This document shows positions 1-3,000 of a stretch of 64,000 nucleotides of DNA, piece after piece. The DNA is taken from NCBI RefSeq assembly GCF_058153355.1, contig NZ_CM177019.1; one strand, written 5' to 3'. How positions within the stretch are numbered: the stretch's first letter is position 1; each line of letters opens with the position of its first letter. The position numbers are program-made.

Positions 1-3000
1 GCCGAGAAATTACAACTCAGCAAAGAGGATGTCTTTAATATACTGTCTTCATTCAACGATAAAACTTCCCAAAACCCCTCGGGTTTATTTAAGGTCATGT
101 CACATGGGAAGGTAAATATGCTGAAGTTCATGCTGGATAATCTCTGCGCGCTACCGGAGGAGGTATTTACCAAAGAGGATATTCTGGGTTTCCTGGCTGT
201 AAAAAATGCGAATGGCATGACGGGGATGGCGCATGCTATGTCTTATGGTCATGTGGAAATAGTGAAGGCCATGCTGGACCGTCTTTGCTCGATGAAGGGG
301 GAGTTTAATATTACCAAAGACTATGTCCTCAATAATATACTGGCTTCAAAAAACGGCAACGGCTGGACAGGGATATCTTTAGCCATAGCGCACGGACATG
401 TGGAAATACTGAAGACCATACTTGACGCGCTCCCCATGCTGAATGATAAGTTTGACATTACCGGCGCGGATATACAAAAGTTTCTGTTTGCAAAAATCGA
501 CGAAGACATCTCGGGTTGGACCAAAGGTATGGACAGAGGGAATAAGGACAAACTGATAAGCATGTACAAAATGCTGTTCGATAACATACTGATGGATAAT
601 AAGTCAGATATTCCTGTTGATTTGCTGAGGGAATTAAATATTGTCAGCCATATTGTATTGACAGAAACTGGAAAACCAAAAACAGACGAAATAGCAAGGC
701 AGTCTGAAACCAGCCTCACCTACGGACAACTCCGGCAATGGAGTGATCTGAGTGTACGGCGGGCGGCCAGGAGTTTAGAGGATTACTGTCGGAACCTAAA
801 CATTAATGTGGACACTGTCAAACCCTACCTGACCCCAGACGGGCTTACTCCCCTCGGCGAAGAGATGCGGGATAATGTAAAAGTGCCGGGGCTCACTGTT
901 GTGGGGTAAGGCCCTGCACATCCCGTGGCCCCCTGCATGGCTAAAGCATGGAAAGCGGAAGAAAAAGCGCAATGAGGTCGTAGGACGAACGGTTCGGGGA
1001 AGGCTGAAGAGTACGTATCTGGTCCTGAAGACCGGATAAACCTTCATCGGTCCAACGTTTAAGCCACTTGTAGCCAGTGGCAGGAGAAATGCCGTAGTGA
1101 CGGACCCTGTAAATAATTCTGTGTAACTGCCCACGATTAAAGGTGGCCGCTCAGGCGGTCACCGTATTCGATAATAAATTGTGTGATTCATAGACATCGT
1201 TTCAATTTTCTCAGCTCAAGTTCAAGCTGGTTATTCTGTTCCTGTATATGCTCCTCATTGGGCTGATAGTTTGCGTGAACGGCATCAGAGTATGGCGTTT
1301 TCTTAGCAAGTTCAAAGTAGCGCGCCATCGGAGTTATCAGCCACCCACAGCTGGTCAGGATGTTCTGCCACGAACTGACGATTCACACAGTCGCCTGCGG
1401 CAACGACTTTCCTGCTGACTGTAAACAGAACGACGGTCGGCGGTGAAATAACGGTCTTTGCCCTCACCTACGCCATGGCCCAGCGCCCGGCTCATGTCGT
1501 ACATCACGTTAGTAGCCATCGCTTTCACGCAGGCATCCATTGCGGCGTCGTTCAAAACCATACCTCCCCAGCCGCAAATACCGGGTAACCTGATACTTCA
1601 CAATAAGATTGGTGCGTGGATGATAGATTGCCAAATAATAATCCATAAAGAAATAATGACAACAAAAAACATCAAGCATTACTAATGTTATTTGGCCATA
1701 TAAAACATTAATAACTCTTGACCTTTCCTGACATTTTCCATATTCGCAATCATATTCTGTTTAGACGGTGTTTATAAACATCATGCATAATGAAATCGTC
1801 ATGTTATTTGGCGATATAAAAAAGTCTTTGAAAATACTCTCTACAACAAGTGCAGTTATAAGCTTGTTGTGACTGAGCGTCCTTGTGATTTAAAGATATT
1901 ATCGTTCTTCATCAGATGTAATAACTCAGGAAATTATATTTTCAGGGTGACAGGCTAATCAAGAATGATTCTTTTTTATAAGCAATAACAGAATGACTGA
2001 ATTGTTATATTTCTTTATTCAGCTGCTTAAATATAAACTTTGGAGAATTATGAAACTCAAACATGTCGGAATGATTGTCGTATCTGTGTTGGCGATGTCT
2101 TCGGCTGCAGTTAACGCTGCCGAAGGTGATGAGTCAGTTACTACCACCGTTAATGGCGGTGTTATTCATTTTAAAGGCGAAGTGGTAAATGCCGCTTGTG
2201 CGATTGACTCAGAATCAATGAACCAAACGGTTGAGCTGGGTCAGGTCCGTTCTTCTCGCCTGGCTAAAGCGGGTGACCTCAGTAGCGCTGTAGGCTTCAA
2301 TATCAAGCTGAATGATTGTGATACCAATGTTTCCAGTAATGCGGCTGTTGCATTCCTTGGGACTACTGTCACCAGTAATGACGATACGTTGGCGCTTCAG
2401 AGTTCAGCGGCAGGCTCTGCCCAGAATGTCGGTATCCAAATTTTGGACCGTACGGGGGAGGTATTAATACTGGATGGGGCAACTTTTAGCGCTAAAACTG
2501 ACTTGATTGATGGCACGAATATACTGCCATTCCAGGCTCGTTATATTGCCCTCGGGCAGTCAGTGGCGGGTACTGCAAATGCAGATGCGACCTTCAAAGT
2601 CCAATACCTATAATTGAGTATTCGGGTGGCTATGCGTCATCTGAAATTAAAACAGGGTGTGTGTGGCATGGCTACTCACACCCGAAAAAATTCATCAATA
2701 TTTATCTCATTATTACTAAGGAATGACTTATATTTTGGAACGATATGAAAAAATCATAGAGTATCTAAACGATTAATAAACAAGACAGTTAAATTTACTG
2801 TGATTTTAAAAATCACTTTGAAGACAATTTTTATTTCAATAGAGAACCAAATTTTATTACCAGCGCATTAAGTCTGGAAACCCGGCCATCCGCCATAGCA
2901 TTAGCAATATTTACCATTTTCTGATGTGACGGTTTCCCCCGCTTAGCCTATCAACACATGGAGAACACATCAGATGCAGACGACTCGTACGCCCTACTCT

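Follow-up and report, generated by a model that had tools for sequence, protein, structure and literature searches.

The interval from position 965 to position 1597 of the window (the whole 64,000-nucleotide stretch of contig NZ_CM177019.1 that was analysed; positions are those of the window unless another sequence is named) is very probably a functionless collection of mobile-element remains, in which repeated insertion and truncation are recorded, and it lies at the edge of a 5.4-kb block. It consists of five unrelated minus-strand coding fragments placed head to tail (Table 1), in which pieces of four different elements from three IS families, plus a scrap of a hydrolase gene, make up the debris.

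Composition of the interval

The start of the window lies within a 651-aa ankyrin-repeat gene whose end is at position 909, and the F9 (Fml/Yde) chaperone-usher operon begins with its major-subunit gene, for which the start equivalent to that called by PGAP in WL297 lies at about 2050 and the longest ORF runs from 1993. Read along the minus strand, the order between them is hydrolase, IS629-like piece, ISEc18-like 3' end, IS256-family 3' end, ISEc19-like helix-turn-helix (HTH) piece, spacer and then the ankyrin gene on the other strand. For the spacer beside the ankyrin gene, the only matches were in the 17 genomes with the complete mosaic. The identities and boundaries of the five fragments are assigned with high confidence, and their extent, orientation and junction positions are direct observations, as is the presence/absence polymorphism described below.

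Table 1. Features from the end of the ankyrin-repeat gene to the start of the conserved F9 upstream region, in window coordinates.
Feature	Position	Strand	Basis
Spacer, 55 bp, from the ankyrin gene stop codon (907-909) to the ISEc19-like fragment, without recognisable origin	910-964	.	
ISEc19-like IS481 transposase fragment (HTH / leucine-zipper, codons ~35-80 of 384)	965-1102	-	tblastn, blastn, Pfam
IS256-family (ISEc39-like) element, last 77 bp with terminal repeat	1103-1179	-	nucleotide comparison with ISEc39 ends
ISEc18-like IS481 element, last 156 bp including 25-bp terminal repeat	1180-1335	-	alignment to intact ISEc18
IS629/IS1203-like IS3-family orfB, 88-bp internal piece	1336-1423	-	blastn and peptide comparison
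Alpha/beta-hydrolase gene, internal piece	1424-1597	-	PGAP and phmmer
Spacer, 69 bp, from the hydrolase fragment to the conserved F9 upstream region (homology from 1667)	1598-1666	.	

PGAP (RefSeq) marks the ISEc19-like, ISEc18-like and hydrolase pieces as partial pseudogenes in WL297, EC42405 and 2013C-4282, and the IS256-family and IS3-family pieces carry no PGAP annotation. The initial annotation had described the interval as transposase debris, which is right for positions 965-1423, where the debris comes from four elements, but not as a description of one IS481/IS3-like gene, and not for the last quarter, 1424-1597, which is hydrolase. The further broken fragments that it mentioned are real: an ISEc18 3' end (93% over 156 nt), an IS256-family end (100% over 77 nt) and a piece of IS3 orfB (88-90% over 83-88 nt). 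It was also correct that no intact ORF survives, as an ORF scan of the interval found no complete transposase and no ORF longer than a fragment. Its statement that terminal repeats are missing was mistaken, in that a solo ISEc18 repeat (1180-1204) and a solo IS256-family repeat (from 1103) survive, with their IS tips at 1103 and 1180; no matched pair of terminal repeats was found in the interval.

The IS481-family pieces

The minus-strand IS481-like HTH segment reported in the initial annotation is present: the peptide quoted there was found at positions 1102-965, and the frame-0 translation of 1140-940 reads ...RHYGISPATGYKWLKRWTDEGLSGLQDQIRTLQPSPNRSS... This piece scores over the Pfam cut-offs for HTH_23 (29.3 bits, cut-off 24.6), HTH_28 (28.9, cut-off 25) and LZ_Tnp_IS481 (25.6, cut-off 22.2), and is matched by the NCBIfam model transpos_IS481 with an E-value of 2.4e-6. 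It is 65% identical over 46 aa to residues 35-80 of YagA/ISEc19 (tblastn, E 3e-18), and its DNA is 75.6% identical to ISEc19/yagA over 131 nt (blastn against a 28-Gb database, E 5e-16). What it shares with ISEc19, the IS481-family element whose yagA gene lies in the K-12 CP4-6 prophage, is the N-terminal HTH and leucine-zipper region, which places it in the IS481 family. Unlike ISEc19, it keeps only 12% of the gene, with the N-terminus, the DDE core and each of the two IS ends missing; no rve-like sequence was found in any frame after the HTH piece, and NF033577 is matched over profile positions 21-62 of 284 only (27.3 bits, cut-off 224). The piece is thus a relic of an IS481 member and not a functional member. 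With a nucleotide identity to ISEc19 of ~75%, its parent is a different, unnamed ISEc19 relative. Nearer N-terminal relatives are the partial proteins P0156 and P0157 of other assemblies (...CRHYGISPATGYKWLKRWTEEGLSG), which are 86-92% identical over ~40% of the query. At the equivalent position in WL297, PGAP calls a partial "helix-turn-helix domain-containing protein".

The ISEc18-like piece is the better preserved in sequence, with 92.9% identity over 156 nt to the intact ISEc18 on plasmid NZ_CP122878 (pairwise E 1e-64). Its first 25 bp, at positions 1180-1204 (TGTGTGATTCATAGACATCGTTTCA), match both the left and the right end of intact ISEc18, being identical to 1777-1801 of L005 and, as the reverse complement, to 2772-2796 of L005, and are therefore the terminal inverted repeat; the repeat begins with TGT, common to both reference ends, and one end only is in the window. 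The piece encodes the last 48 transposase codons (TPMARYFELAKKTPYSDAVHANYQPNEEHIQEQNNQLELELRKLKRCL, followed by the stop), with 88% protein identity over 48 aa to ISEc18, and the stop codon falls within the repeat, as in ISEc18, an IS481 element of ~1.0 kb of which intact copies occur on E. coli plasmids (NZ_CP122878 among them). Unlike ISEc18, it is without the first ~860 bp, so that of the 324-aa intact ORF only residues 276-323 are encoded, and the break at 1335/1336 leads into an unrelated IS3-family piece. PGAP labels it "IS481 family transposase, missing N-terminus".

All fragments being on one strand, and two of them coming from the IS481 family, one could read the interval as one IS481- or IS3-like transposase gene that frameshifts and stops have disrupted. 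We give this reading virtually no chance, and consider it refuted by the order of the pieces, the identities of the elements and the IS256-family end that intervenes. On the coding strand, the C-terminal piece (ISEc18-like) precedes the N-terminal one (ISEc19-like); these IS481 pieces come from different elements, one being 93% identical to ISEc18 and the other showing 35% protein identity to ISEc18 but 65% to YagA; and the IS256-family end lies between the two, with the IS3-family piece following.

The IS256-family end

The 77-bp piece between the two IS481 relics holds a terminal inverted repeat, GACCCTGTAAATAATTCTGTGTAACTGCC, with its tip at position 1103, and the last 13 transposase codons, FIIEYGDRLSGHL followed by the stop. 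Comparison of this repeat with both ends of ISEc39, together with the collinear C-terminus (FIIEFGDRLSEHL and the stop in ISEc39), assigns it to the IS256 family; the piece is 88% identical to the ISEc39 end in Nissle 1917 and ~76% identical to IS1414. It differs from ISEc39 and IS1414 in that 77 of ~1,300 bp are left in the window. No second IS256-family terminal repeat was found within 880-1720, and the piece shows neither a DDE transposase nor an 8-9-bp target duplication. A copy identical over all 77 nt (E 4e-30, 28-Gb database) was found beside the truncated yjhR gene in K-12-type genomes, roughly a thousand of which carry it. This yjhR-side relic is cut on the inner side at the identical base, but its flanks differ from those in the window on both sides.

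A match to SMS-3-5 had raised the candidate reading of 1103-1335 as the 3' end of one ISEc18-like element followed by a long untranslated tail, which is ruled out by the identification of 1103-1179 as an IS256-family end. The ISEc18-type relic of SMS-3-5 likewise abuts ...TAATAAAA, so that the sequence ...TAATAAA(T/A) adjoins two ISEc18-type ends that are independent of each other, one in the window and one in SMS-3-5. This abutment and the 77-bp end could point to a strong target preference of ISEc18 within IS256-family ends, with recurrent trapping of one IS in another followed by loss, or else to a 77-bp unit that moves or recombines as a small module; we think this unlikely.

The IS3-family and hydrolase pieces

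The IS3-family piece corresponds to the start of the orfB integrase core (TVSRKVVAAGDCVNRQFVAEHPDQLWVAD), at about nt 700-790 of a 1.3-kb element, with which it is collinear. It matches IS3-family, IS629 and IS1203 genes in thousands of records at 88-90% identity over 83-88 nt (E 5e-24, 28-Gb database), and 25 of the 29 residues of its peptide are identical to the pO157 IS3-family OrfB; the NCBIfam model transpos_IS3 gives a weak match. IS629 and IS1203 belong to the IS51 group of the IS3 family in the ISfinder grouping. Unlike them, the 88 bp retained here hold no orfA and no site for the programmed -1 frameshift between orfA and orfB, no DDE residues and neither end. Neither an Rfam match nor terminal repeats were found in the piece, and the AL1L frameshift pseudoknot annotated in the reference IS3 element lies upstream of the part retained.

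That the transposase similarity of the interval is due to chance, and that the interval is ordinary intergenic DNA, can be dismissed outright. The E-values (1e-64 for ISEc18, 4e-30 for the IS256-family end, 5e-24 for IS3 and 5e-16 for ISEc19) and the Pfam scores over curated cut-offs refute it.

The remaining fragment, for which PGAP gives a partial "alpha/beta hydrolase", spans the nucleophile elbow (G-I-C-G-W-G-G) and ~45 residues beyond, corresponding to residues ~150-208 of relatives of 320-370 aa. A phmmer search with it against 1.84 billion representatives returned 163 matches, in which full-length relatives of 260-372 aa are 48-60% identical and bear Peptidase_S15, DLH and Abhydrolase_1 domains. 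The G-x-Nu-x-G motif of hydrolases is conserved in homologous sequence, GICGWGG aligning with GICGWGG, GICGFGG or GIYGFGG of the relatives; the complete catalytic triad and fold are not there, as ~57 of ~320-370 residues are encoded, and no Pfam or NCBIfam model matched the fragment alone. We would like to note that word-indexed protein searches with the hydrolase and HTH stubs returned only other short fragments, and that the full-length hydrolases were reached by the exhaustive phmmer search. At the nucleotide level the fragment has 79-80% identity, across 166 nt, with genes of two further assemblies (L018 and L019). These assemblies are fragmented and their hydrolase genes lie beside LysR-type regulators, not fimbriae, and they give no clue to the ancestral state of the locus.

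Junctions and order of events

The four junctions within the mosaic are of two kinds. At 1102/1103 the tip of the IS256-family element abuts an internal position (codon 35) of the ISEc19-like gene, and at 1179/1180 the ISEc18 tip abuts a point 77 bp inside the IS256-family element. An intact IS tip set against an internal position, as seen at these two junctions of the four, is characteristic of nested transposition. The other two join internal sequence of ISEc18 to internal sequence of IS3 (1335/1336) and internal sequence of IS3 to the hydrolase (1423/1424), with 0-1 bp of microhomology, and such internal-to-internal joins are read as scars of deletion or illegitimate recombination.

We place moderate confidence in the following order of insertions, which is deduced from one end of each element. 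An IS256-family element would have entered the ISEc19-like transposase gene between codons 34 and 35 (1102/1103), and an ISEc18-like element would then have entered the IS256-family element 77 bp from its end (1179/1180). Deletion or illegitimate recombination at 1335/1336 and 1423/1424 would have taken away the rest of every element. The truncation of the IS256-family element may be older than the ISEc18 junction of the window, because the yjhR-side relic is 100% identical and cut at the identical inner base; this would fit an assembly from pre-existing relics better than simple nesting in situ.

The 5.4-kb block between hipA and the F9 operon

A 5.4-kb block (1112-6523 of L001), which was found in WL297-type genomes and in the window and is absent from N96, has the four IS pieces at its right edge. 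N96 lacks 1112-6523 of L001 with a right end at window position 1422/1423; it has the hydrolase fragment and the same F9 allele, but none of the IS debris. The IS pieces stop at 1423, the IS3/hydrolase junction, at most 4 bp from this right boundary, which supports the proposal of the initial annotation that the debris marks a junction of horizontally acquired DNA. The block contains a gene remnant (from an integrase/Hachiman island), a 477-aa LRR protein with repeats resembling the LRR domain of SspH2/SlrP, an Xre-type HTH stub, the ankyrin gene and the four IS pieces. No target-site duplication was found at the block boundaries, and an A-run is the only microhomology at the N96 joint. The N96 state may be either the empty ancestral one or a deletion derivative, the junction sequences being compatible with either.

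The block is not bounded like a composite transposon, with an IS at both boundaries and a target duplication, as what lies at its left boundary (L001 from 1112 onward) is no IS but the remains of a hypothetical gene from an integrase island. The two "HTH" pseudogenes that flank the ankyrin gene had also been considered as direct IS481 copies of such a transposon; this was ruled out, since the left one is of Xre type (HTH_31/HTH_3) and a self-comparison found no similarity between the flanks.

The full stretch from 900 to 1720 is present in 17 of 5,426 complete E. coli genomes, at 97-99% identity, and 2013C-4282 shows a further deletion in which everything left of 971 is gone, into the ankyrin gene. 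In mainstream E. coli, the alignment with the window begins no further left than 1667 and runs rightwards, at ~89%. The interval between hipA and F9 is ~6.5 kb here, against a ~0.4-kb yneL/Z2199 AraC-like remnant after hipBA in mainstream E. coli. This remnant, yneL/Z2199 (ECs2114), sits in the hipA-F9 interval of K-12 and O157 (PMC7766294). It resembles the window interval in its chromosomal position, from hipA to the conserved F9 upstream region, and in being a pseudogene; the two have no sequence similarity, and the window type has no yneL-like DNA. On these comparisons the debris does sit at the edge of a strain-specific block, within a hotspot.

It is possible, with a probability that we put somewhat below even, that the mosaic was put together elsewhere, on a plasmid or island with many IS relics, and came in already complete, as the right end of the LRR/ankyrin block, by illegitimate or homologous recombination and not by transposition. 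The debris lies wholly within the segment absent from N96 and hence travels with the block, the left part of which is a remnant of a gene from an integrase-bearing island of NCTC11121; the missing target-site duplication at the block boundaries and the KpLE2/yjhR-side relic, with its full identity, shared inner truncation and different flanks, point the same way. Against this, no other locus or plasmid was found with any of the mosaic junctions, the full stretch occurring in its 17 genomes at this chromosomal site only, and a 27-mer across the ISEc18/IS256 junction had no exact match in 100,044 species-representative genomes. Assembly elsewhere is also compatible with nesting and does not exclude it, altering only where the nesting took place.

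The initial annotation had further suggested that the debris may explain why gene content at this end differs from K-12, and this is weakly supported. K-12 has lost the major subunit, the chaperone and the 5' part of the usher of the F9 operon, and in K-12-type genomes the homologue of 1667-1871 is fused directly to the truncated usher ydeT. The left end of this deletion corresponds to 1871, ~450 bp right of the debris, in sequence without an IS remnant. The deletion is an event of its own that leaves the debris untouched, and the comparison with K-12 found nothing to show that the dead IS copies caused any difference in gene content.

Coding and regulatory potential of the debris

We infer that the interval 965-1597 is inert today. 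ORFs in its other frames and on the other strand matched no Pfam family, and an Rfam scan of the interval gave no match at E<=1. In a promoter and terminator scan, which found nothing to suggest a function of the debris, promoter-like sites cluster in the AT-rich F9 upstream region to the right of 1597 (31-38% G+C, against 46-55% in the debris), with one exception, a 9/12 site within the ISEc18 repeat.

A domesticated fragment, with the HTH stub acting as a small DNA-binding regulator or with promoters borne by the debris acting on the F9 or ankyrin genes, is in our view highly improbable. A 58-aa protein, P0155, 96% identical and named "helix-turn-helix domain-containing protein", is called on 273 contigs, and the fimbrial operon downstream of the debris has no cis-encoded regulator in this lineage, the yneL/Z2199 AraC-like remnant being absent. 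However, the start Met of P0155 is ATT (Ile) in the window, where no ORF initiated by ATG, GTG or TTG spans the HTH, and the P0155 start falls within the IS256 terminal repeat, which makes its reading frame an accident of the junction. The stub, a pseudogene according to PGAP, is only half an HTH-leucine-zipper module. The distance from the debris to the F9 start codon also exceeds 450 bp, the conserved sequence upstream of F9 (1667-2050) is intact, and the F9 operon here is broken anyway by an IS66 insertion.

Implications

The interval is ordinary multi-IS debris, largely annotated already in RefSeq. New here are its exact dissection into five pieces, including two relics absent from the RefSeq annotation, and its link to the 5.4-kb indel. 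The K-12 F9 deletion should not be ascribed to these IS elements. The placement of the debris at the block edge is useful for reconstructing this variable region or for typing these lineages, and the LRR protein and the 651-aa ankyrin-repeat protein next door are of more interest than the debris itself.

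Insertion-sequence fragments and decay at the debris edge

Among the dead insertion-sequence pieces between the ankyrin gene and the F9 fimbrial operon, the 77-bp end of an ISEc39-like IS256-family element (window 1103-1179) is 100% identical to the relic on the yjhR side in K-12-type genomes (L011 2501-2577), where the copy abuts a truncated yjhR. The inner truncation point is the same in both; the flanks on either side are unrelated. About 920 records match this end at an identity of at least 99%. Farther right, a 68-aa ORF runs out of the hydrolase fragment and enters the IS3-family fragment in the wrong frame. 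Public assemblies annotate a version of it, P0002 (93% identical), as a protein; it is almost certainly an annotation artefact.

The carrier strain 2013C-4282 (L015 5623-7132) has an additional deletion at the debris edge. Its ankyrin gene is 1,383 nt long rather than 1,956 nt, the 3' part having been deleted along with everything from there up to window 970, so decay at this edge is ongoing. At the left edge of the 5.4-kb block that comprises the LRR gene, the ankyrin gene, and the debris, a remnant (L001 1115-1550) matches, at 94.5% identity, a portion of a hypothetical gene of 558 nt that lies in an NCTC11121 island. Separately, the position that hipBA occupies in other strains, directly to the left of the variable segment, holds a set of filamentous-phage-like genes in WL297.

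Features of the window and of the compared loci
Feature	Location	Strand	Description
Chimeric ORF	window 1355-1561	(-)	68 aa, MVLNDAAMDAC...SVYSQQESRCRRRLCESSVRGRTS
LRR protein	L001 1920-3353	(-)	477 aa; repeats match LRR region of SspH2/SlrP
Ankyrin-repeat protein	L001 4055-6010 (= window ..909)	(+)	651 aa
IS66-family element	window 3980-6445		apparently intact; inside F9 usher gene
IS66-family element ORFs	window 4054-4482, 4479-4826, 4846-6417
WL297 filamentous-phage-like genes	L016 663-6496		replication protein II/X, major coat protein, Zot-domain protein, secretin
NCTC11121 island	L017 1-10435		558-nt hypothetical gene; site-specific integrase; HamA/helicase (Hachiman-type) defence pair

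The F9 operon and the lineage of the window

Of the F9 upstream region, K-12-type genomes keep only the 205 bp corresponding to window 1667-1871, at 83.6% identity, and their homologue is fused directly to ydeT, an N-terminally truncated usher pseudogene. This fusion sets the left breakpoint of the K-12 F9 deletion. The F9 usher gene of the window is interrupted by an IS66-family element, whose TnpC ORF matches NF033517 (E 9e-144), and the fimbrial operon is therefore probably inactive in this strain. Comparison with WL297 shows that strain to be without the element, and the alignments flanking it overlap there by 11 bp, which is consistent with a target duplication.

WL297 and the window share about 98.5% identity over 33 kb. 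The core genes gadC, digH, dosC, and dosP (window 28000-34000) show about 96% identity to almost every E. coli genome of the collection, with 2020CK-00188 the only genome at 99.1%, so the window derives from a sparsely sampled Escherichia lineage.

Repeat proteins of the 5.4-kb block

The two proteins encoded by the 5.4-kb block have eukaryote-like repeats. The LRR protein resembles the type III effectors SspH2 and SlrP in that its repeats match their LRR region (E 1e-51), with no match to the SspH2/SlrP models past that region. The LRR and ankyrin proteins may be secreted effectors, and they hold more interest than the insertion-sequence debris beside them.
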